Shown: positions 2,264 through 54,172 of the stretch, piece after piece | How the letters are laid out: the number at the start of each line of letters is the position of its first letter | Position numbering within the stretch: the first letter of the stretch is position 1 | Origin: Escherichia phage vB_Eco_NR1 | Sequence record: LR990704 | Length of the DNA stretch: 64,000 nt | Direction: 5' to 3' (one strand) | Translations under genes and position numbers: made by a program | Notes under the pieces: generated by a model | What the model saw: only the letters and a program-made list of their open reading frames with translations | The model's database searches: none | Told to the model about the DNA's origin: nothing

Positions 2264-2613
2264 TTAGAAAGGTCCTGGATGTCTTCTGCGAACTTGTTGA
2301 AGGAATTGTTGATTTGTTTTTCAACCAATCCTGGCTTACGAGCCACCACATCCGCCTTCTTTGCGTCTTTGCGCAGCTTTTCATTTTCACGCTCAATAGC
2401 AGCAATTGCCTCACGATTTTTAGTATTCATCGCATCAATATAATTATACTGAATTCGCAAATTATTTAATGCTAAAGCGTTTTCATTGGCTGTTTTTGTA
2501 ATTTCAGTAACTGATGTTTCTAATCTTTCTACCTTATTTTTTAAAATAATAGATGTTCCGCCAAATGCTATTACAAGTAATAGCAATCCAGCTGTTGTAT
2601 TACTTAATTGCAT
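2260..2613 (-). CDS. hypothetical membrane-anchored coiled-coil protein (117 aa)
   Basis: N-terminal hydrophobic helix (AGLLLLVIAFGGTSIIL) followed by charged helical region. Confidence 0.6.
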   Translation of the reverse strand: MQLSNTTAGLLLLVIAFGGTSIILKNKVERLETSVTEITKTANENALALNNLRIQYNYIDAMNTKNREAIAAIERENEKLRKDAKKADVVARKPGLVEKQINNSFNKFAEDIQDLSK

Positions 2614-3110
2614 AAAGTTTTAATAACCTCTATAATATCGTCTTGAGAAAGACCGTTAATTAAAATATGATGTTCAGCCGGAGATTTAGAAATTTTAAAG
2701 CATGCCTCAACATCTTCTGCCATATCCGATGCACTACGATTTGGATTACTAATTCCAAGACGATGCTTTCCAGTCAAAGGATTAACGATGATATAGCATT
2801 TGCAGCTATTGATATGAACATTAGGCTGAGTCTGATTAATGAACACTTCGCAATCATACTTAGCGAGTTGATTTTCTAAAAAGACTTTCATCTCTTCAAC
2901 CGCATCAGGAAGCATATCACGGGCTTGCTCAAGACGACGATTTCGATATTCTTTAATGGTCGTTTTCCGCTTGACTTGCTTAGCTAAATCTTTCTTAAGA
3001 TCGGTGATATATCCAACTCGACGATTTCCTTTGAATACAGAAATCCCATCTGTAGTATCACCGTATGCTTCAACGACCATTTCAGTAGTAATAAGTTGTA
3101 AATCCATCAT
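2604..3110 (-). CDS. alc: Alc, inhibitor of host transcription elongation on cytosine-containing DNA
   Basis: 168-aa ORF (T4 Alc 167 aa); position between pseT cluster and rnlA as in T4; sequence matches recalled T4 Alc. Confidence 0.85.
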   Translation of the reverse strand: MMDLQLITTEMVVEAYGDTTDGISVFKGNRRVGYITDLKKDLAKQVKRKTTIKEYRNRRLEQARDMLPDAVEEMKVFLENQLAKYDCEVFINQTQPNVHINSCKCYIIVNPLTGKHRLGISNPNRSASDMAEDVEACFKISKSPAEHHILINGLSQDDIIEVIKTLCN

Positions 3111-3171
3111 AAAGTCCTCATGTTATGTCAGTAAGACTACTGTAACACAACACGAGGGACTTGTAAACAGC

Positions 3172-4759
<1,588 letters not shown>

Positions 4760-4786: not shown

Positions 4787-5965
4787 TTAAAAGTATTTTT
4801 TAAAACTCATCATAACTTTATCATCAACATCATTATCAATCTGTGCAACAAGGTAAGATGACAGTTCTACTTCTTGTGGCGCGGATTGAACATTATCAGA
4901 ATTAAGATATTCACGAATCCAAGGATATGGATGTTTAACCGGAGCATCGGTAATCGGGCATGGAAGACCACACTGTTTCATACGAGATACAGTTAAGTAA
5001 TCAATAAAGCTCCACATGCTATTTGTATTTAATCCAGGAACATCGCCATCTTTAAATAAATGAACTGCCCAATCTTTTTCTTGGCGGTTAACTTCCATGA
5101 AAATATCAACTGCTTCTTGTTCACACTCTTGAGCAATTTTAACCCATTGATCGCCATCAGTACCAGATTGAAGTTGACGAATAATATATTGGGTGCCTTT
5201 AAGGTGAAGCTGTTCATCGCGTGCAATGAACTTCATAATCTTGGCATTACCTTCCATGATTTCCATGTTCTTATGGAAGTTAAAGGTACATGCGAAAGAT
5301 ACATAAAAACGAATAGCTTCCAATGCGTTAATTACATGCAAACAGAGGTAAAGAGATTTCATTAGCTCACGCTTCCAATATGTCTCATGCTCAATAGCAT
5401 CTTCAATAACGTCTTCGTCTGCATTAATTTCTTTTTGGTATTCGATATCAGCTTTAGCGTTTTCCCAATAACGAGTTTTAATCAGAACATCATCATAATA
5501 ACGTCCAATGGATTCAGCACGTTTCATAATAGCTTCATCTAATACAATTTCATCAAATACCTTCGATGGATCAGTATAAAGATTTCGCATGATATGTGTA
5601 TATGAACGGCTGTGAATAGTTTCACTAAAAGTCCATGTAGCAACCCATGTATCAAGGCTTGGGTCTGAAATTAATGACATAAGTACAGCAGATGGCGCAC
5701 GACCCTGAATGCTATCCAAAAGTGATTGATACTTCAGGTTATTAGTAAAAATATTTTGCTGATACTGAGGAAGCTTGTTAAATTGTGCAGCATCCATCAT
5801 TAAGTTTACTTCTTCAGGACGCCAGAAAAATGACAATTGCTTTTCGGTTAAATCTTCAAAAACTTTATGGCGTTGAATATCATAACGCGCAATACCAAGA
5901 CCTGAACCGAAGAACATAGGTTCTTTTAAAACATCAACTGGATTTGTATTAAAAACTGTAGACAT
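4787..5965 (-). CDS. nrdB: ribonucleotide reductase class Ia small (beta) subunit
   Basis: 392 aa continuous ORF; di-iron R2 fold motifs; no intron or I-TevIII-like ORF interrupts it. Confidence 0.95.
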   Translation of the reverse strand: MSTVFNTNPVDVLKEPMFFGSGLGIARYDIQRHKVFEDLTEKQLSFFWRPEEVNLMMDAAQFNKLPQYQQNIFTNNLKYQSLLDSIQGRAPSAVLMSLISDPSLDTWVATWTFSETIHSRSYTHIMRNLYTDPSKVFDEIVLDEAIMKRAESIGRYYDDVLIKTRYWENAKADIEYQKEINADEDVIEDAIEHETYWKRELMKSLYLCLHVINALEAIRFYVSFACTFNFHKNMEIMEGNAKIMKFIARDEQLHLKGTQYIIRQLQSGTDGDQWVKIAQECEQEAVDIFMEVNRQEKDWAVHLFKDGDVPGLNTNSMWSFIDYLTVSRMKQCGLPCPITDAPVKHPYPWIREYLNSDNVQSAPQEVELSSYLVAQIDNDVDDKVMMSFKKYF

Positions 5966-5999: not shown

Positions 6000-6791
6000 T
6001 CACATATTGTGTATAAGCACTTCGGTCTGAAATGATGCACCCTTCTTTTGCTTCCTATACATGGTTTCAAAATATTCAATTTTGAAATTATTAGAAAGGG
6101 CCCAATCTTTTAAAATATAATTATTAATATCGTCTGATAGATTATTAGTGATAATAAATTTAGACTTCGATTGTTTAATTTTGTCTAATAATTCTAATTC
6201 ATCCTTTTCTTCCCAGCCTGAATATTTAAATTTAGTAGAAAGATACGGCGGGTCAATGAATAAATTTTTGTTTTCAAAATCCAAATCTCTGAATGATTTA
6301 TTACTAAATGTAAATCGGTGCTGTCTATTTTTAAATTCAGAAAATTTATCCTGCTGAGACTTATTAAAAGAAGTTCTGGAATACTTGGCTCTATTGGCGA
6401 AAGCCGCGTTATAATTCCCATTACTAGAAAATCGGATTAACGAACTGAATGAAAATAAATGTAGAACATAAAGATATAATCCGTTTTTGGTTTTATCGTA
6501 TTCTTTTGACAGATTATAAAAAGGTGCTGAATCTTTGTCATTCAAATTAAAATCTTCAATAATTTTAACTATATCATTAATTGAAGATGATTTCATCTTT
6601 TTATACATGTCTATAAGAGGAGTATTAATATCATTACATATAACATCTCTCTGACAATTCATAGAAAATCCAAGACCACCACAAAAAGCATCCAAAACAG
6701 GCTTATCGTCAAAGCGGTTTGAAAATTGTCTAATAAATGGCATATACTTATGTTTTGCACCTGGATATGTTATGGCAGGTAGGTCTTTCAT
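6000..6791 (-). CDS. DNA N6-adenine methyltransferase, Dam family (divergent)
   Basis: 263 aa; motif I DAFCGGLGF and catalytic motif IV FIDPPYL in alpha-class order; N-terminal YPGAK and segment YVLHLFSFSSLIRFS resemble T4 Dam; very AT-rich coding sequence. Confidence 0.8.
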   Translation of the reverse strand: MKDLPAITYPGAKHKYMPFIRQFSNRFDDKPVLDAFCGGLGFSMNCQRDVICNDINTPLIDMYKKMKSSSINDIVKIIEDFNLNDKDSAPFYNLSKEYDKTKNGLYLYVLHLFSFSSLIRFSSNGNYNAAFANRAKYSRTSFNKSQQDKFSEFKNRQHRFTFSNKSFRDLDFENKNLFIDPPYLSTKFKYSGWEEKDELELLDKIKQSKSKFIITNNLSDDINNYILKDWALSNNFKIEYFETMYRKQKKGASFQTEVLIHNM

Positions 6792-6834: not shown

Positions 6835-9099
6835 TCATAATTTACAGGATGAACAATCTTCAGCTTTTGGAGTTTCTATTTCATAATCATCAGTACCAGA
6901 ACCATCACGGGTATTATGATAATAGAAATTTTTTCCGCCAAAATACCAAAAGTACAAAAGGTCATCAATCATTACAGACATTGGAACCTTTCCTTTTGGA
7001 AAAATCTGCGGGTCATAATATGTATTTGCTGAAGCTGATTGACATACCCATTTAAGCATAATAGCTACCTGCGTAAGATAAGGTTTATTACCTTTCTTAG
7101 CTAATTTCCATGTATAATCATAGAGGTCTATGTTATGCTCAATATTGGGCACGACTTGATTAAAGGAGCCCTCTTTTGATTCTTTAACAGAGACTGGTCC
7201 ACGTGGAGGCTCGATACCGTTTGTACTGTTAGAAACTTGGGAAGATGACTCACATGGCATAAGTGCTGATAATGTGCTATTACGGATGCCAAAGAGCTTA
7301 AGGTCTTCCCGCAGCGACGACCAGTCACAAACGTATTTTGGAGCTGCGATTTGGTCAATCTTTTTATTGTACCAGTCGATAGGTAATTCGCCTCGAGACC
7401 AACGAGTGTCTGAATAATATTCGCAAGGTCCTTTTTCTTTGGCGAGCTTAATGGATGCTTTAATGAGTCCATACTGTAATCTCTCAAATAGTTCATGTGT
7501 TAAATCGTTAGCATCTTCATAAGAAGCAAAGTTACTTGCCAGCCAAGCTGCATAGTTAGTAACACCTACACCGAGGTTACGACGCTTTTTAGCTTTTTCT
7601 GCTTCAGGAACTGGATATCCTTGGTAATCCAAAAGATTATCAAGAGCACGAACTTGGACTTCTGCCAATTCATTAATTTTATCTTGGTCTTGCCAGTCAA
7701 AATTATCCAGTACGAATGCAGATAACGTACACAATCCAATTTCAGCATCAGGACTATTCACATCATTTGTTGGAATAGCAATTTCACAACACAAGTTACT
7801 CTGACGAATAGGTGCCTTTTCACGAATAAACGGAGTATAGTTATTCGTATTATCAATGAACTGTACATAAATCCTTGCTGTTCCTGAACGTTCAGTCATG
7901 AGCAATTCAAATAGTTCACGGGCTTTAATACGCTTTTTACGAATATTAGGGTCTTTTTCTGCTGCTTCGTATAATTCACGGAAACGGTCTTGGTCTTTAA
8001 AATAAGAATAATAAAGCTCTCCACCCATTTCATGTGGACTGAACAAAGTAATGTAATCGTTCTTTCCAAATCGTTCCATCATCAAATCATTCAGCTGAAC
8101 GCCATAATCCATATGACGAATGCGGTTTTCTTCTACGCCTTTGTTATTTTTCAAAACGAGAAGATTTTCAACTTCCAAATGCCAAATAGGATAATAAGCA
8201 GTAGCAGCGCCGCCACGAATTCCACCCTGTGAACATGATTTAACTGCAGTCTGAAAATGTTTCCAAAAAGGAATAACACCAGTATGACGTACTTCACCCA
8301 TGCCAATCTTAGAACCTTCAGCACGAATCATACCAACATTAATACCAATTCCAGCGCGTTTAGAGATATATTCAACAATTGAAGCGGAAGCCTTATTGAT
8401 AGACTTCAATGAATCACCTGCCTCAATAACAACACATGAACTAAACTGTCGAGTTGGAGTACGGCAACCAGCCATAATAGGAGTTGGCAATGAAATCTGT
8501 CGAGTAGATACTGCTTCATAAAAACGGATAACATGTTTTAATCTATCAACAGGTTCATCTTGATGCAGTGCCATTCCAATAGTCATAAATGCAAACTGCG
8601 GAGTTTCATAAATTTGACCAGTGGTTTTATCTTTAACTAGATATTTTTCTTTTAATTGCATCGCACCGGAATAAGTAAATTCCATATCCCGCTCGTGCTT
8701 AATTTTTGATTCTAAAAATGTAATTTCTTCTGCTGAATATTTTGACAATAATTCAGGGTCATATTTACCTGCATTTACACAGTAAGAAATATGGTCAATA
8801 AATGAACGCGGTTCATACTGCCCGTAAACATGCTTACGAAGAGCAAACATTAAACAGCGTGCAGCTACATATTGATAATCAGGCTCTTCAACCGAAATAG
8901 AATTCGCAGCAGCCTTAATTACAATAGTTTGAATGTCATCAGTGGTCATTCCATCACGGAGATATGATTTAATATTTTCATATAATTCATAAGGATCTAC
9001 AGATGTTCCTTCAGCTGCCCAAGATAAAACTTTAATAATTTTTTGTGGGTCAAAGCTCTGAGAAACACCACTACTTTTGATAACATTAATTAATTGCAT
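6835..9099 (-). CDS. nrdA: ribonucleotide reductase class Ia large (alpha) subunit
   Basis: 754 aa (T4 NrdA 754 aa); ATP-cone N-terminus, catalytic NxCxE (SNLCCEI) and C-terminal CSSCKL tail. Confidence 0.97.
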   Translation of the reverse strand: MQLINVIKSSGVSQSFDPQKIIKVLSWAAEGTSVDPYELYENIKSYLRDGMTTDDIQTIVIKAAANSISVEEPDYQYVAARCLMFALRKHVYGQYEPRSFIDHISYCVNAGKYDPELLSKYSAEEITFLESKIKHERDMEFTYSGAMQLKEKYLVKDKTTGQIYETPQFAFMTIGMALHQDEPVDRLKHVIRFYEAVSTRQISLPTPIMAGCRTPTRQFSSCVVIEAGDSLKSINKASASIVEYISKRAGIGINVGMIRAEGSKIGMGEVRHTGVIPFWKHFQTAVKSCSQGGIRGGAATAYYPIWHLEVENLLVLKNNKGVEENRIRHMDYGVQLNDLMMERFGKNDYITLFSPHEMGGELYYSYFKDQDRFRELYEAAEKDPNIRKKRIKARELFELLMTERSGTARIYVQFIDNTNNYTPFIREKAPIRQSNLCCEIAIPTNDVNSPDAEIGLCTLSAFVLDNFDWQDQDKINELAEVQVRALDNLLDYQGYPVPEAEKAKKRRNLGVGVTNYAAWLASNFASYEDANDLTHELFERLQYGLIKASIKLAKEKGPCEYYSDTRWSRGELPIDWYNKKIDQIAAPKYVCDWSSLREDLKLFGIRNSTLSALMPCESSSQVSNSTNGIEPPRGPVSVKESKEGSFNQVVPNIEHNIDLYDYTWKLAKKGNKPYLTQVAIMLKWVCQSASANTYYDPQIFPKGKVPMSVMIDDLLYFWYFGGKNFYYHNTRDGSGTDDYEIETPKAEDCSSCKL

Positions 9100-15355: not shown

Positions 15356-16273
15356 TCAAAATTCATTAATGCTATTAGTTAATTTAGAAAGACCCGCTTT
15401 TACAAAATATGAATAAATTTTGCCACGCGGTGGTAATTTATATGAATTATAGTAATTCACAATGTTTGAAGCAATATTATCAGGAATATAATCAAAATCA
15501 ATTAGAACTAAATTTTCTTTATAACGATTATATTCAGATTCAGTGAGAAGCACTTTAGCTTGCTCACGGTCATTAGCAATAGCTTCAACGATTGAAGTTT
15601 TCATTGAAGGAGTTCGTTCACCTTCAACTCTGGTAAACCAAAAGTCAGATCGTACTTTAACTGAAGCAACGTTGTCCTTTTTGTCGCCTTTAAGGATTTT
15701 AGTCATACAGTCAATTTCAGCAGAACCGCTTTTAATTTTAACCCATTTCTTATGCATCGGTGACCATTGCTTAACATTTGGGTATTTATGAAGCTGTGTA
15801 AAGTCACCATCCGATGAAATGATTAAAATCTTGTGTCCTTCTAAAGAGAACTTTTTAACAAGAACAGCAATGTGGTCATCTGCTTCATACTTATCAATAT
15901 CCATAACAATGTATGGCATATAAGCTTTCAATTCATCTATAACTTTATGACTGGATTCAAAATAACCTTCCCAGTCCCAAGTCGATTCTTCTCGTGCTTT
16001 TCCACGGTTTTTCTTATAATAATAAGCGAAATCACGACGCCAGTATCCAGATTTCGCGTTATCAATACACAGTACAATTTTAGTGTATCCAAGCGTTTTT
16101 GCTTTTTTGACATTAAACTTAATTGAGTTCAATATCAAATGACGAACCATTGATAAATTAATTTTTTCTTTATCTGGGAAGTTTACCAGAGCAGTTGAAA
16201 GCGCAATTTGACTAAAGTCAATAAAGCAAATTCCTTCTTTGTAATCTTCATCCAGCATCATTTCTAAATCCAT
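15356..16273 (-). CDS. rnh: RNase H (5-prime to 3-prime exonuclease, FEN family)
   Basis: ORF track 15356..16288; start trimmed to MDLEMMLDEDYKEG (305 aa) as in T4 RNase H. Confidence 0.93.
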   Translation of the reverse strand: MDLEMMLDEDYKEGICFIDFSQIALSTALVNFPDKEKINLSMVRHLILNSIKFNVKKAKTLGYTKIVLCIDNAKSGYWRRDFAYYYKKNRGKAREESTWDWEGYFESSHKVIDELKAYMPYIVMDIDKYEADDHIAVLVKKFSLEGHKILIISSDGDFTQLHKYPNVKQWSPMHKKWVKIKSGSAEIDCMTKILKGDKKDNVASVKVRSDFWFTRVEGERTPSMKTSIVEAIANDREQAKVLLTESEYNRYKENLVLIDFDYIPDNIASNIVNYYNSYKLPPRGKIYSYFVKAGLSKLTNSINEF

Positions 16274-16335
16274 ATGAACCTCGTTCAATTAGTGAGATTT
16301 CTATTATATACCATCCGAATCTTAAAGTAAACAAG

Positions 16336-16343
16336 TATAAATA
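16336..16343 (+). promoter_or_regulatory. T4-type late promoter TATAAATA for gene 34
   Basis: exact TATAAATA 35 nt upstream of gene 34 ATG. Confidence 0.75.
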
Positions 16344-16377
16344 CTTATTATTGAAAACACAATAGGAGCCCGGGAGA

Positions 16378-19300
16378 ATGGCCGAGATTAAAAGAAAGTT
16401 CAGAGCAGAAGACGGTCTGGACGCAGGTGGCGATAAAATAATCAACGTAGCTTTAGCTGATCGTACCGTAGGAACTGACGGTGTTAACGTTGATTACTTA
16501 ATTCAAGAAAACACAGTTCAACAATACGATCCAACTCGTGGATATTTAAAAGATTTTGTAATCATTTATGATAACCGCTTTTGGGCTGCTATAAATGATA
16601 TTCCAAAACCAGCAGGAGCTTTTAATAGCGGACGCTGGAGAGCATTACGTACCGATGCTAACTGGATTACGGTTTCATCTGGTTCATATCAATTAAAATC
16701 CGGTGAAGCTATTTCGGTTAACACTGCAGCTGGAAATGACATCACGTTTACTTTACCATCTACTCCAATTGATGGTGATACTATCGTTCTCCAAGATATT
16801 GGAGGAAAACCTGGAGTTAACCAAGTTTTAATTGTAGCTCCAGTGCAAAGTATTGTAAACTTCAGAGGTCAACAAGTACGTTCAGTACTAATGACTCATC
16901 CAAAATCGCAGATAGTTTTAATTTTTAGTAATCGTCTGTGGCAAATGTATGTTGCTGATTATAGTAGAGAAGCTGTAGTTGTAACACCAGCAAGTCTCTA
17001 TCAGGCGCAATCTAATGATTTTATCGTACGTAGATTTACTTCTGCTGCACCAATTAATGTTAAACTTCCAAGATTTGCTAATCATGGCGATATTATTAAT
17101 TTCGTTGATTTAGATAAACTGAATCCACTTTATCATACAATTGTTACTACATACGATGAAACGACTTCAGTACAAGAAGTTGGAACTCATTCCATTGAAG
17201 GCCGTACATCAATTGACGGTTTCTTGATGTTTGATGATAATGAGAAATTGTGGAGATTGTTTGACGGGGATAGTAAAGCACGTTTACGCATTATAACGAC
17301 TAATTCTAATATTCGTCCAAACGAAGAAGTCATGGTATTTGGTGCGAATAACGGAACAACTCAAACAATTGAGCTTCAGCTTCCAACTAATATTTCTGTT
17401 GGTGATACTGTTAAAATTTCCATGAATTACATGAGAAAAGGACAAACAGTTAAAATCAAAGCTGCGGGCGAAGATAAAATTGCTTCTTCAGTTCAATTAC
17501 TGCAATTCCCAAAACGCTCAGAATATCCACCTGAAGCTGAATGGGTTACAGTTCAAGAATTAGTTTTTAACGGTGAAACTAATTATGTTCCAGTTTTACA
17601 ACTTGCTTATATAGAAGATTCTGATGGAAAATACTGGGTTGTACAGCAAAACGTTCCAACTGTAGAAAGAGTTGATTCTTTAAATGATTCTACTAGAGCA
17701 AGATTAGGCGTAATTGCTTTAGCTACACAAGCTCAAGCTAATGCCGATTTAGAAAATTCTCCACAAAAAGAATTAGCAATTACTCCAGAAACATTAGCTA
17801 ACCGTACTGCTACTGAAACTCGCAGAGGTATTGCAAGAATAGCAACTACTGCTCAAGTGAATCAGAACACCACATTCTCTTTTGCAGATGACCTTATCAT
17901 TACTCCTAAAAAGCTGAATGAAAGAACTGCTACAGAAACTCGCAGAGGTGTTGCTGAAATTGCTACGCAGCAAGAAACTAATGCAGGAACCGATGATACT
18001 ACAATCATCACTCCTAAAAAGCTTCAAGCTCGCCAAGGTTCTGAATCATTATCTGGTATTGTAACTTTTGTATCTACTGCAGGTGCTACTCCAGCTTCTA
18101 GTCGTGAATTAAATGGTACGAATGTTTATAATAAAAACACTAATAATTTAGTTGTTTCACCTAAAGCTTTGGATCAGTATAAAGCTACTCCAACACAGCA
18201 AGGTGCAGTAATTTTAGCAGTTGAAAGTGAAGTAATTGCTGGACAAAGCCAAGAAGGATGGGCAAATGCGGTTGTAACGCCAGAAACGTTACATAAAAAG
18301 ACATCAACTGATGCAAGAATTGGTTTAATTGAAATTGCTACGCAAAGTGAAGTTAATACAGGAACTGATTATACTCGTGCAGTCACTCCTAAAACTTTAA
18401 ATGACCGTAGAGCAACTGAAAGTTTAAGTGGTATAGCTGAAATTGCTACACAAGTTGAATTCGACGCAGGCGTCGACGATACTCGTATCTCTACACCATT
18501 AAAAATTAAAACCAGATTTAATAGTACTGATCGTACTTCTGTTGTTGCTCTATCTGGATTAGTTGAATCAGGAACTCTCTGGGACCATTATACCCTTAAT
18601 ATTCTTGAAGCAAATGAGACACAGCGTGGTACACTTCGTGTAGCTACACAGGTCGAAGCTGCTGCAGGAACATTAGATAATGTTTTAATAACTCCTAAAA
18701 AGCTTTTAGGTACTAAATCTACCGAATCGCAAGAAGGTGTTATTAAAGTTGCAACTCAGTCTGAAACTGTGGCTGGAACGTCAGCAAATACTGCTGTATC
18801 TCCAAAAAATTTAAAATGGATTGCGCAGAGTGAACCTACCTGGGCAGCTACTACTGCGATAAGAGGTTTTGTTAAAACTTCATCTGGTTCAATTACATTC
18901 GTTGGTAATGATACAGTCGGTTCTACCCAAGATTTAGAACTGTATGAGAAAAATAGCTATGCAGTATCACCATATGAATTAAACCGTGTATTAGCAAATT
19001 ATTTGCCGTTAAAAGCAAAAGCTGCTGATACAAATTTATTGGATGGTCTAGATTCATCTCAGTTCATTCGTAGGGATATTGCACAGACAGTTAATGGTTC
19101 ACTAACCTTAACTCAACAAACGAATCTGAGTGCCCCTCTTGTATCATCTAGTACTGCTACGTTTGGCGGATCAGTTTCGGCAAACAGCACATTAACTATT
19201 TCTAATACTGGAACGGCAACTCGTCTGATTTTTGAGAAAGGACCTCAAACTGGAACTAACCCAGCGCAGACGATGACTATCAGAGTTTGGGGAAATCAGT

Positions 19301-50868: not shown

Positions 50869-51114
50869 TTATTCACCAGTTACTTTCCACAAATCTTCAT
50901 TTGCAGCAATCCATTCAGTACGTTGATTTTCTTCATATACTGTAGAATATGCTGCTTTTTCTGAAGGGAATGTCTGGTAATGTGCACCAGAAATTTTGTG
51001 AACGTCAGAATAAAGAGGGAAAGCTACGGAAATTTCCTTTCCTTCAATTTTCTTATTTCCATCTAATTTCTGCTCAAATGTTTTGATATTAACATAACCG
51101 CGAGTACTAGCCAT
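50869..51114 (-). CDS. soc: small outer capsid protein Soc
   Basis: 81 aa matching recalled T4 Soc; late promoter TATAAATA upstream and terminator downstream. Confidence 0.95.
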   Translation of the reverse strand: MASTRGYVNIKTFEQKLDGNKKIEGKEISVAFPLYSDVHKISGAHYQTFPSEKAAYSTVYEENQRTEWIAANEDLWKVTGE

Positions 51115-51144
51115 GTAATTCTCCTTTTATTTAAATTACATGAT

Positions 51145-51152
51145 TATTTATA
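51145..51152 (-). promoter_or_regulatory. late promoter TATAAATA for soc
   Basis: TATAAATA on minus strand about 30 nt upstream of soc ATG. Confidence 0.65.
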
Positions 51153-51197
51153 ATAAATTCTCGCGGCTTTTAAGTCGTCGTTTATTTAAACGAGCTA

Positions 51198-51716
51198 TTA
51201 ATAGCCTCGGTCTTGACGAGCGAAATTTTCAGCATTTTTCAGATAATAAAGTTTAAATATTTCTTCAGCTGACATTCCAAGAGCAATAAATTTATTCATG
51301 AAAAAGTGAAATTGGTCAATCAGTTCAAATTTAATTTCAAGCTGATCTTCAGGAGATAAGTCTTGAATTTTCTTGGATTGCATTTCAGAATAACGTTTCT
51401 TCCAAGGTTTCCATACGGCAGAAGCTTCTTTTTCACCATTACTCATACCACCAAGAGAAGTATATAGTTCGCGAGTTTCATCTGCGATATAATCGTCTTG
51501 GTTTCGCAACCAAGCAAGAACTTCTCCTGCAGTTTCAAGTGAATCAGGATGACGATTTGTTTCTGGTTTATCATTAGCCAAACGAATCTGTAAATGCCGC
51601 TGCATATCAAGCATAACCTGCAGTGGGTCAATATTGTGCATAATATTCTCAGCATATGCACGATTTGCTTTATCAACACCTTCGATCAAATGAGCACATT
51701 CATTAAAGTAAGCCAT
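51198..51716 (-). CDS. 56: dCTP/dCDP pyrophosphatase gp56 (MazG-like)
   Basis: ORF track 51198..51809 trimmed to MAYFNECAHLIEG (172 aa; T4 gp56 171 aa); upstream part overlaps a MotA-box promoter. Confidence 0.85.
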   Translation of the reverse strand: MAYFNECAHLIEGVDKANRAYAENIMHNIDPLQVMLDMQRHLQIRLANDKPETNRHPDSLETAGEVLAWLRNQDDYIADETRELYTSLGGMSNGEKEASAVWKPWKKRYSEMQSKKIQDLSPEDQLEIKFELIDQFHFFMNKFIALGMSAEEIFKLYYLKNAENFARQDRGY

Positions 51717-51775
51717 TATTTTTCCTTTCAATTCATGGGTTAGTAGATTAATTATACAATAAATATATAAAGCAA
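51717..51775 (-). promoter_or_regulatory. MotA-dependent middle promoter upstream of gene 56
   Basis: minus strand tTGCTTtA, 11 nt, TATAAT. Confidence 0.5.
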
Positions 51776-51787
51776 TAAGGAGGACAT

Positions 51788-51988
51788 ATGGTACAAAAAT
51801 TAATGGCACTTGTTAATGCCATAAAAGGTAATAAAAAACGTATAGCTTTTACTATTTCTGCTATGGTAGGAATTTTACTCTGGAACTTTATTCTATCACC
51901 TGTTGCAATTGCGCATGGTATTAATATTCCAGTAGTTACTCTTGATACATTTGTAGATTTAGCATTTGCTTTAGTTGGGTTGATTTAA
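51788..51988 (+). CDS. putative small membrane protein (66 aa) on opposite strand between 56 and 61
   Basis: AAGGAGG SD 4 nt before ATG; two predicted TM segments; ORF fits the 56-61 intergenic gap exactly (4-nt overlap with gene 61 end). Confidence 0.4.
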   Translation: MVQKLMALVNAIKGNKKRIAFTISAMVGILLWNFILSPVAIAHGINIPVVTLDTFVDLAFALVGLI

Positions 51989-53013
51989 ATCTTAGCATAT
52001 TTAGATAGCCGCATTTTAGCCATCAACCCCTGGGCAATATTATTTTTCATATATTCCATAATTTGTTCAGGGGTTGCACCTTCCTTTCTAATCATATCAT
52101 TGACATCTTTTGATTTCCAGGGAGATTTATCCCAAAACATAACCCTTTCTCCTGCATCAACTAATTTAGTCATTCGTTTGATAGTGTCAGGGTGACGAGG
52201 TTCATTATCTAAAACCCACACTCGTCTATCTTTAAATGGAACAACTTCTAGGTCTAATTGACCACCTGTAATAGCTATACCATTTTCAATAAAAAGTGAA
52301 TCTATAGGTCCTTCTAGAACATATACATCACCATCTTTAACTCGTTCAACACCGTAAATTTTTGTTGCCTCAGGATAAGCTTTAATGGTGATATATTTTT
52401 GAGGAGCATCTTTCTTTAATGCACGTCCTTGAAAAGACTCAGCTTTTCCATTAGCATTATAAATTGGAATAACAAGACGAGGCTCAGAAATTTCCTTTTT
52501 GTATGTTCCCGGTGCTATGCTATTAACTAATTTAGGCCATTCGGTTGTAAACCAAAGATATTTCCATTTATCCTTTGGAATACAACGAGCTTTTACATAT
52601 TTTATAATTGGATGGTCTTCCGCCAGTTTATCTAATCTAACACATGACGGAAGAGATTTAATTATTTTCTTCTCAGGTTGCTTAGGAAGTTCTTTAGGTT
52701 TTTCTACTGGACGACTTTTACCTTTTTCTTTTCTTATTTCAAAGATATACTCACGATATAAATCGGGTTCAAACTCCTTTAAATATATTCCGATTGGTGC
52801 ATGATAGTTACAGTTATAACAATGAATATTTCCTTCATTATTATCACCATAATACCATCCACGAGCTTTATTCTGGTCGGTTTTTGAATCTCCACAAACA
52901 GGACATCTAAACCGCAATTTAAAAGTTGAACTATTATTTACTTGTGTGAATTTAGGTAAATGAGCCAATGCACGGTATGCAAACTCATTATCAATCCAAG
53001 GTATTGATGACAT
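51985..53013 (-). CDS. 61: DNA primase gp61
   Basis: 342 aa as in T4 gp61; N-terminal zinc ribbon CPVCGD...CYNCNYH and Toprim region. Confidence 0.95.
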   Translation of the reverse strand: MSSIPWIDNEFAYRALAHLPKFTQVNNSSTFKLRFRCPVCGDSKTDQNKARGWYYGDNNEGNIHCYNCNYHAPIGIYLKEFEPDLYREYIFEIRKEKGKSRPVEKPKELPKQPEKKIIKSLPSCVRLDKLAEDHPIIKYVKARCIPKDKWKYLWFTTEWPKLVNSIAPGTYKKEISEPRLVIPIYNANGKAESFQGRALKKDAPQKYITIKAYPEATKIYGVERVKDGDVYVLEGPIDSLFIENGIAITGGQLDLEVVPFKDRRVWVLDNEPRHPDTIKRMTKLVDAGERVMFWDKSPWKSKDVNDMIRKEGATPEQIMEYMKNNIAQGLMAKMRLSKYAKI

Positions 53014-53180: not shown

Positions 53181-53229
53181 ATTAACCTCTATTCATAAAA
53201 GCATTAAAAATTTGGTCATCAATAGATGG
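53181..53229. repeat. 44-48 bp direct repeat, copy 1 (3-prime end of 118-aa ORF)
   Basis: attaacctctattcataaaagcattaaaaatttggtcatcaataga nearly identical to copy at 53539..53587. Confidence 0.8.
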
Positions 53230-53538
53230 CGCAGTAATATTTTCTGCATCATTTAGCAAATCATTAATTTCATCAGATAGCATAACACATGTACCTTTAT
53301 TTCCTGTAATTGTTACTGCACAATTACGAACGTTTTCTTTATCAAATTTTAGGTTAATATTTTCGTAGTGAAAATCCTTTAATGCCGAATATATCTTTAA
53401 AATGAAATTGTCTTTTACTACAATAAACCCAACCTCACTATTAAAACGCGGTTCATGGAAACTGTAATAAACCTTTTCATCTATAAAATCGTATGAAATT
53501 TTTTCCATTTTTAAATATGAAAATTCAGAACTATACAT
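53182..53538 (-). CDS. hypothetical protein (118 aa), paralog of adjacent 210-aa ORF
   Basis: shares VKDN-containing repeat and C-terminal SIDDQIFNAFMN(R/K)G with 53540..54172. Confidence 0.6.
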   Translation of the reverse strand: MYSSEFSYLKMEKISYDFIDEKVYYSFHEPRFNSEVGFIVVKDNFILKIYSALKDFHYENINLKFDKENVRNCAVTITGNKGTCVMLSDEINDLLNDAENITAPSIDDQIFNAFMNRG

Positions 53539-53587
53539 ATTAACCTTTATTCATAAAAGCATTAAAAATTTGATCGTCAATAGAAAC
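53539..53587. repeat. 44-48 bp direct repeat, copy 2 (3-prime end of 210-aa ORF)
   Basis: attaacctttattcataaaagcattaaaaatttgatcgtcaataga. Confidence 0.8.
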
Positions 53588-54172
53588 TTTTACTTTAGGC
53601 TGTTCTTCAAACAGTAATTCATATCCACATATTACAATTTTGTGATCGATACCAAAATACACAGAAGCAATATTATTAATATTATTTTCAGTGAAATCTA
53701 AATCAACATCAATATCTTTTTGACTAACGCTCAAAGGATAATTAATACGAATAATTCGATTATCTTTAACAAAGATTCCACCGACATACTCTGTGCTGCG
53801 TTTAAAGTTTACACGTTTCCTAAATGAAAAATATTCAGGTTCTTTATGGGCTCGACTCATAGGGCTTAAAGTGTATTCCGAATATGAAATATCAAATCCT
53901 ACACCTTCAATATGAGCCAAAGTATCATGATTAAACCAATTATAATCGTATGCCAAATCCATTAAATTGTAATATGTGAAAGGCACCGGATTAACATCAT
54001 ATGTTGTACCTTTAAAATCTGCCCAGGCAACGATTTCGTTATCTTTAACAATTACAAAAATTGTGCCAATAAGATATCCACGGTTATTTTCATCAGGTGT
54101 TATATTATAACATTGTGCATCAGGAAATTTACCGTATTTAAACGGTGGATTTTTGTGCATATAATAAATCAT
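53540..54172 (-). CDS. hypothetical protein (210 aa) with internal VKDN repeats
   Basis: ORF track; repeated motif (GTIFVIVKDNEIV, GGIFVKDNRIIRI). Confidence 0.6.
   Translation of the reverse strand: MIYYMHKNPPFKYGKFPDAQCYNITPDENNRGYLIGTIFVIVKDNEIVAWADFKGTTYDVNPVPFTYYNLMDLAYDYNWFNHDTLAHIEGVGFDISYSEYTLSPMSRAHKEPEYFSFRKRVNFKRSTEYVGGIFVKDNRIIRINYPLSVSQKDIDVDLDFTENNINNIASVYFGIDHKIVICGYELLFEEQPKVKVSIDDQIFNAFMNKG

Follow-up and report, generated by a model that had tools for sequence, protein, structure and literature searches.

The gene 56–gene 61 interval of Escherichia phage vB_Eco_NR1: a cargo slot without dam and the conserved small gene dam.1

Introduction

The interval between gene 56 and gene 61 is the place at which phage T4 carries its dam gene, and the corresponding interval in the window, i.e. 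the whole stretch of 64,000 nucleotides from Escherichia phage vB_Eco_NR1 (sequence record LR990704) analysed here, raises the question of what has become of this gene and what stands in its place. An earlier note, made from the sequence of the window, had regarded the interval as a canonical dam locus that is empty and in which a single membrane micro-ORF on the opposite strand has replaced the methyltransferase gene, and it had taken a Dam-like gene between nrdB and nrdA as a sign that the phage methyltransferase was relocated or replaced. We describe the locus, its counterparts in other T4-like phages, the small gene dam.1 that it contains, and the Dam-like gene located elsewhere in the window.

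Organization of the interval in the window

The window is a segment of a Tequatrovirus (T4-like) genome, and the 1.2 kb around the interval share 99.4% identity with Shigella phage ESh18 and about 98% with RB3, RB5, and many other phages. The following elements were located:

51198..51716, minus strand: gene 56 (dCTPase/dUTPase), phrog_173, E 2.4e-44
51717..51787, both strands: divergent control region of 71 bp, with a predicted middle promoter on the minus strand and a late-promoter-like motif on the plus strand
51751..51777, minus strand: predicted MotA-dependent middle promoter of gene 56, by consensus match
51758..51765, plus strand: AATAAATA, a motif resembling a late promoter (TATAAATA with A at -13) and located 22 nt before the dam.1 ATG
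51776..51777: junction at which extra T4/T2 DNA is absent, from blastn breakpoints and alignments
51777..51783, plus strand: AAGGAGG Shine-Dalgarno sequence of dam.1, 4 nt before the ATG, kept in all homologous loci
51788..51988, plus strand: dam.1 homologue encoding a 66-aa small membrane protein, phrog_2024, whose stop overlaps the gene 61 stop
51803..51822, minus strand: terminator-like hairpin with an 8-bp stem and a loop of 4, then TAATTTTTGT, inside dam.1 codons 6-12
51985..53013, minus strand: gene 61 (DNA primase), convergent with dam.1, phrog_47, E 1e-106

The interval measures 268 bp (51717..51984), close to the 270 bp given in the earlier note, and it is indeed without dam: a tblastn search of the window with T4 Dam gave no match at 51-52 kb, and no D12-class Dam is encoded in the 268 bp. 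Equally correct was the description of a lone plus-strand ORF of 66 aa behind AAGGAGG, since the ORF at 51788..51988, which starts with ATG, is the sole one of at least 25 aa lying inside the interval, and its coordinates and sequence agree. An Rfam search of 51500-52200 returned nothing beyond a chance miRNA match (E 0.18). On the plus strand, a sequence similar to a MotA box, ATTTGCTTTA, is found twice, at 51964..51973 in the 3' end of dam.1 and at 51663..51672 inside gene 56; this pair is probably due to chance.

MotA-dependent middle promoters have the consensus (a/t)3TGCTTtA located 12+/-1 bp from TAtaaT (PMC2988021). Upstream of gene 56, a MotA box (tatTGCTTTA, 51777->51768) is followed by an 11-nt spacer and a -10 element (TATAAT, 51756->51751), and this sequence match identifies a candidate promoter of the MotA-dependent type. 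In the alignments, T4 and T2 have the same elements in front of gene 56; the T4 record describes the transcript of this upstream promoter as the oriA primer. On account of the homology to the T4 primer promoter, the oriA-associated promoter appears to be retained in the window, and the idea that oriA-associated sequence is gone from the interval was not borne out. We infer that the promoter, which would be MotA/AsiA-dependent, drives gene 56 and is the counterpart of the T4 promoter, which also primes oriA.

Some 165 nt downstream of gene 61, the early strand holds the terminator-like hairpin, which has a U-tract and may, as a speculation, end or stabilise the gene 61 transcript. It is conserved in Tequatrovirus only; a dual-use terminator conserved across the family was considered and rejected, as the hairpin is absent in Mosigvirus and Gaprivervirus.

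Comparison with phages T4 and T2

In T4 (NC_000866), gene 56 (16270-16785), oriA (16763), dam (16846-17625), and gene 61 (17935-18963) follow one another, which agrees with the statement in the earlier note that the interval holds oriA-associated sequence and dam in this phage. The gap of 309 bp between dam and gene 61 in the RefSeq record encodes the same plus-strand 66-aa ORF with 2 aa differences, and T2 also carries the dam.1 ORF beside dam. Since dam.1 and dam coexist in T4 and T2, the micro-ORF did not replace dam, and this part of the earlier reading has to be given up. In RefSeq T4 and in MT984581, dam.1 is unannotated, but it is annotated under the name dam.1 in the independently sequenced T4T (HM137666), whose gene product (T4Tp032, ADJ39749.1) shares with that of the window the length of 66 aa and 97% identity, and whose gene shares the plus strand, the overlap with the gene 61 stop, and the Shine-Dalgarno sequence.

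Compared with T4, about 900 bp comprising dam are absent from the window, and compared with T2 1417 bp comprising dam and an ORF of 181 aa (T2_032), in both cases with the breakpoint at 51776|51777. Past this breakpoint, homology restarts at the dam.1 Shine-Dalgarno sequence with 97% identity. On the other side, the gene 56 allele is T2-like, its DNA identity being 94.6% to T2 versus 73.7% to T4. In T4 and T2, dam.1 is separated from gene 56 by dam (in T2 by dam plus one ORF), whereas in the window its promoter stands back-to-back with that of gene 56. The T4 dam cassette, which encodes a GATC N6-adenine methyltransferase, fills the slot that is empty in the window, and the two elements flanking it, the gene 56 promoter and dam.1, are common to both phages.

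Several observations concern the surroundings of the locus. T2_032, located immediately upstream of dam (2314..2859 on the minus strand of the T2 LC348380 locus extract), shows weak sub-threshold matches to the DpnII, BanI, and HSDR_N nuclease families (E ~0.01) and is a possible PD-(D/E)XK nuclease beside a GATC methylase. The segF gene, which lies between soc and gene 56 in T4, is absent from the window (50869..51716), and gene 56 is of the T2 type between flanks that both share about 97.5% identity with T4; a mosaic pattern of this kind is expected around a SegF homing site (SegF marker exclusion). Phage 236Ecol005PP combines segF and a T4-type gene 56 with the dam-less junction. In another variable patch, downstream of 61.1 (53182..54172, minus strand), the place of the single T4 gene 61.2 is taken in the window by two ORFs (118 aa and 210 aa); they share the C-terminal motif SIDDQIFNAFMN[RK]G and have the look of paralogues or of a local duplication.

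dam.1 as a conserved protein-coding gene

The dam.1 product matches phrog_2024 with an E value of 1.4e-31, residues 2-66 being aligned to positions 1-65 of the 65-position profile, and membership in this family is further indicated by synteny, i.e. a plus-strand ORF downstream of gene 56 that is convergent with and abuts the 3' end of gene 61, and by a conserved motif. This motif consists of a basic N-terminus, a transmembrane segment with W-N-[FYL], then P, [HQ]-G, and P, and it is kept at 25-30% identity; in the dam.1 alignment, W32, N33, F34, P38, H43, G44, and P48 are invariant. Remote homologues in other genera retain a length of 65-69 aa and a start with a strong Shine-Dalgarno sequence. 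The variable alignment columns fall on the three codon positions in the numbers 45/21/56, and dN/dS (Nei-Gojobori; synonymous sites are saturated between genera) amounts to 0.05-0.12 in Tequatrovirus, 0.07 in Mosigvirus, and 0.3-0.4 in Gaprivervirus. By these sequence measures, dam.1 is a real gene under purifying selection.

The conservation in related phages that the earlier note had proposed as a check was found: dam.1 was detected by tblastn in 692 phage records, namely 502 with >=90% amino acid identity (Tequatrovirus) and 190 with 44-57%, and the gene is conserved at the same position in at least five groups of Tevenvirinae. Outside its own family, the searches gave no relatives. No matches at E<=1 were obtained with Pfam and NCBIfam and nothing in a PDB sequence search, a word-indexed protein search returned near-identical relatives only, and Foldseek against viral models yielded only members of the dam.1 family and insignificant helical matches. 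A single-sequence search of 1.84 billion representative proteins found no credible relatives beyond the family; the long repetitive proteins that it matched were regarded as hydrophobic low-complexity noise. A search of the literature for dam.1, its peptide string, T4 Ribo-seq, and unannotated small ORFs brought up nothing relevant.

Predicted expression of dam.1

The earlier note had been struck by a plus-strand ORF embedded in an early region that is otherwise transcribed from the minus strand. Of 50 listed T4 late promoters, 32 have a perfect TATAAATA and nine carry A at -13; A(-13) is the commonest variant, most of the others deviate once, and late transcripts run in either polarity (Geiduschek and Kassavetis, PMC2988020). 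The plus-strand motif AATAAATA, which sits in the spacer of the minus-strand gene 56 middle promoter, is a candidate element of the gp55 type, i.e. a TATAAATA-type sequence about one helical turn upstream of the predicted start, with no -35 requirement. An xATAAATA sequence located 16-22 nt upstream of the dam.1 ATG and followed by a strong Shine-Dalgarno sequence is present in all 18 loci compared, which represent five unrelated contexts (next to gene 56, next to dam, next to T2_032, Mosigvirus, and Gaprivervirus). It takes the form AATAAATA in the window and in Mosigvirus, GATAAATA in T4 and T2, and CATAAATA in Gaprivervirus; in T4 and T2 the spacer of the gene 56 promoter differs in sequence because their late-promoter motif lies beyond the dam cassette. 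The first promoter base is never the consensus T in the Tequatro-, Mosig-, and Gaprivervirus loci, where A, G, or C is found instead, and variants of this kind may be weak. The homologue of Klebsiella phage kv_tblp5 has a perfect TATAAATA 20 nt upstream, that of a Karamvirus only ATTAAATA.

In the 64-kb window, ATAAATA occurs at 15 sites as compared with 39.5+/-6 in dinucleotide shuffles, a 2.6-fold depletion of the kind that selection against stray late promoters would produce. At five of the 15, an ORF led by a Shine-Dalgarno sequence follows 18-34 nt downstream, and these ORFs are 34, 36, t, soc, and dam.1. The layout at the holin gene t (26728 in the window), with AATAAATA 18 nt upstream of the ATG and AAGGAGG, is like that of dam.1, whereas the T protein has no sequence similarity to the dam.1 product.

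To judge from these motifs, dam.1 is most probably a late gene, and a scan for sigma70 promoters found no convincing early promoter for it on the plus strand. If dam.1 is late, an antisense ORF in the early region is no longer anomalous, since late transcripts are of either polarity. RNA polymerase with gp55 would initiate transcription about 15 nt before the dam.1 ATG late in infection, and the strong Shine-Dalgarno sequence would then drive translation of the 66-aa protein. No plus-strand terminator was detected after dam.1, so that the late RNA would probably continue antisense into gene 61.

Predicted properties of the dam.1 protein

Five K/R residues are found among residues 1-18 of the dam.1 protein, and residues 19-42 form a clear transmembrane segment (Kyte-Doolittle ~2.0 and Wimley-White ~+10 kcal/mol favourable in 19-residue windows). 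After this segment, an HG..P turn leads into a short acidic amphipathic C-terminal helix; residues 47-66 are marginally hydrophobic and include two Asp at conserved acidic positions. An AlphaFold model of medium confidence (16-sequence alignment, pLDDT 77.5, pTM 0.47) has helices at 2-12, 16-42, and 52-63. Of the two transmembrane helices predicted in the earlier note, the one at 19-42 is clear, whereas the C-terminal segment is marginal and appears in the model as a 12-residue helix (52-63). By the positive-inside rule, the hydropathy profile and the model point to a single-pass protein with its N-terminus inside as the most likely topology. The protein would insert in the inner membrane with the basic N-terminus in the cytoplasm and one transmembrane helix at about residues 19-42, and the short C-terminal tail of about 24 residues would lie at or beyond the periplasmic face.

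As for its role, the guess that we favour is an accessory factor that is expressed late and acts in the envelope or in lysis timing, and our confidence in any specific role is low. The broader proposition that dam.1 is an overlooked T-even late gene with a role in the late envelope programme, whose transcript could also silence gene 61, is a tentative one to which we give limited credence; were it true, envelope roles such as lysis timing, lysis inhibition, superinfection exclusion, or membrane-associated assembly would come into question.

The 56–61 interval as a cargo slot

The frequency of the different arrangements was determined in phage database records, which include some GenBank/RefSeq duplicates. 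With a probe of 181 nt spanning the gene 56 start, the junction, and the dam.1 start, the compact dam-free junction was recognized by contiguous probe cover in 293 records, the T4-type dam cassette is found in 184, and the T2-type extra ORF T2_032 in 156, with about 150 of the dam-positive Tequatroviruses carrying the latter (T2 does, T4 does not). The dam-less 56–61 locus is the commonest state and the majority genotype of sequenced Tequatroviruses. The description of 56–61 as the canonical dam locus is therefore apt for phages of the T4/T2 type and does not hold in general, given 293 dam-free versus 184 dam records. The arrangement is ordinary and has been sequenced before, and dam.1 is already deposited as a hypothetical gene; dozens of deposited phage genomes encode a protein that is 100% identical to that of the window. 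A locus search of IMG/VR added just 10 further loci.

In other genera, the interval is similarly variable. Between genes 56 and 61, Mosigvirus (G2469) and Gaprivervirus (DK-13, TH40) lack dam and possess dam.1. In Karamvirus CkP1 and Klebsiella phage kv_tblp5, the slot is taken up by other cargo on the minus strand, each phage also having a plus-strand ORF of 66-69 aa abutting the primase stop, and these ORFs are homologous to dam.1 according to hhalign (probability 97.5%, E 5e-12, and 95%, E 4e-8, respectively). In RB49 (Krischvirus) and KP15 (Slopekvirus), dam lies elsewhere and adjoins nrdC and gene 49. Serratia phage X20 has no annotated dam.1 homologue, so that dam.1 is not universal. In the DK-13 locus extract, a homing endonuclease gene (2872..3621) is located between dam.1 and the primase gene, and the overlap of the dam.1 and gene 61 stops is thus not obligatory.

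Taken together, the record counts, the layouts in the outgroups, and the presence of dam at other loci lead us to regard the 56–61 interval as a cargo slot of which dam is one accessory occupant. As dam occurs at three or more loci in T4-like phages, reasoning about a canonical locus from T4 is unsafe. The slot would be a variable one of the T-even phages in general, with the empty and most common allele in the window, where two fixed items would be left, the 71-bp divergent control region and dam.1; T4 and T2 would differ from the window only by the extra cargo on the minus strand that separates the gene 56 promoter from dam.1.

The Dam-like methyltransferase between nrdA and nrdB

A second locus concerns the fate of the methyltransferase:

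6000..6791, minus strand: D12-class Dam-like methyltransferase of 263 aa, between nrdA (6835..9099) and nrdB (4787..5965)

The Dam-like gene that the earlier note had placed at nrdB-nrdA proved to be of the D12 class. Its product matches PF02086 with 85.7 bits (cutoff 22, E 5e-24) and contains the motifs FIDPPY (catalytic DPPY) and FCGGLG (FxGxG, AdoMet), as expected for a D12-class N6-adenine DNA methyltransferase. With TIGR00571 ('dam') it scores 94.1 bits, below the cutoff of 114.85, and GATC specificity is consequently not established. In T4, the nrdA-nrdB slot holds the homing endonuclease gene mobE and nrdB.1.

The nrdA-nrdB gene is rare, being present in 8 of 50,697 phage records, four of them at >=98% identity (T4_ev240, 236Ecol005PP, ECO07P2, EP02SG) and four at about 76-80%; its nearest relative outside the T4-like phages, at 41%, is in Alcaligenes phage Afa-NA1. 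According to the record counts, most Tequatroviruses without dam encode no Dam homologue whatsoever, and about 290 dam-less records stand against 8 carriers of the nrdA-nrdB gene. We found no sign that loss of dam needs compensating; T4 dam mutants are viable.

Alternative explanations

Four other readings of the data have to be weighed, two of which concern the nature of dam.1. That 51788..51988 is merely regulatory DNA, containing a terminator for the gene 61 transcript, promoters, or the start of an antisense RNA, with the reading frame being incidental, might be suggested by the hairpin inside the ORF, by the missing annotation in RefSeq T4 and the lack of Pfam/NCBIfam matches, and by the course of the late transcript, which would be antisense to gene 61 with no plus-strand terminator. 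It is very improbable in view of the low dN/dS (0.05-0.12), the excess of third-position substitutions, and the length, Shine-Dalgarno start, and W-N-[FYL]..P..[HQ]G..P motif that persist in other genera down to 25-30% identity, while it is the hairpin that is not conserved outside Tequatrovirus. More room is left for dam.1 as a lysis protein, that is, a holin, antiholin, or pinholin-like factor by which the T holin or lysis inhibition would be modulated, but this too we consider doubtful. The protein is small and hydrophobic, the late-promoter/Shine-Dalgarno layout of its gene recalls that of t in the same window, and one UniProt/BFVD member of the family is labelled 'Holin', a label that appears automatic. 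Class II or pinholin-type proteins are of like size (60-70 aa), hydrophobicity, and probably late expression; they differ from dam.1 in having two transmembrane segments instead of a single robust one and C-terminal instead of N-terminal charges. The dam.1 C-terminus lacks a charged hydrophilic tail and ends with the hydrophobic ALVGLI, there is no match to a holin family in Pfam/NCBIfam or among solved structures, and the gene, whose neighbours are 56 and 61, lies outside the lysis cassette and away from e, t, rI, rIII, and the spanin genes. Despite intensive study of T4 lysis genetics, no lysis locus is known to map at 56–61.

The two remaining readings concern the history of dam, and the evidence on them overlaps. 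A recent deletion from a T2-like ancestor, as opposed to an ancestral empty slot, would agree with flanks that are T2-like (94.6% and 97% identity) and with homology that extends as far as the dam stop codon at one end and the dam.1 Shine-Dalgarno sequence at the other. No direct repeats of a kind that could explain a deletion were detected on the two sides of the junction in a repeat search. The compact order of gene 56, late promoter, and dam.1 is common to Mosigvirus and Gaprivervirus, more distant T4-like phages have dam at other loci, and a simple deletion does not explain a late-promoter motif inside the gene 56 promoter spacer where the sequence of T2 and T4 differs; we therefore think deletion unlikely, with the direction of change (insertion in T2/T4 or loss here) read by parsimony from few outgroups. 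Hardly any credence is due to the original idea that the methyltransferase was relocated or functionally replaced at nrdA-nrdB and that a new opposite-strand micro-ORF filled the vacated 56–61 locus. It has in its favour that the window lacks dam at 56–61 and has the D12-class gene at 6000..6791, and that two other carriers of this gene, T4_ev240 and 236Ecol005PP, are also dam-less at 56–61. The micro-ORF, however, coexists with dam in T4 and T2, and the product of the nrdA-nrdB gene is only 34% identical to T4 Dam (residues 2-182, tblastn). The gene occurs in 8 records as against 293 with the dam-less junction, phage vB_Eco_BGP has both the T4-type and the nrdA-nrdB-type Dam, and two Dam loci are found in at most 2 of 452 Dam-positive records; on a background that is about 58% dam-less, the association with the nrdA-nrdB gene is not significant. 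The nrdA-nrdB methyltransferase is an independent acquisition and not a relocation, and it would represent cargo in another variable slot, unrelated to the dam of 56–61. The explanation that we prefer as a whole, i.e. an empty cargo slot with two promoters, dam.1 as a late membrane-protein gene, and an independent methyltransferase at nrdA-nrdB, is in our judgement quite probable.

Implications for T4-like phages

As it was first framed, the absence of dam at 56–61 carries little weight, the genotype being that of the majority. What the locus does illustrate is how T-even phages accommodate a predicted middle promoter and a predicted late promoter back-to-back in 71 bp and insert cargo between the two. 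Dam in T4-like phages is an accessory gene whose position varies among at least three loci. RefSeq T4 is without dam.1, a small gene that is under clear purifying selection and has the hallmarks of a late membrane-protein gene, and dam.1 would be a cheap knockout target in the best-studied phage. The interest that remains is modest and lies in a conserved, probably late membrane micro-protein that is missing from the reference annotation of T4.
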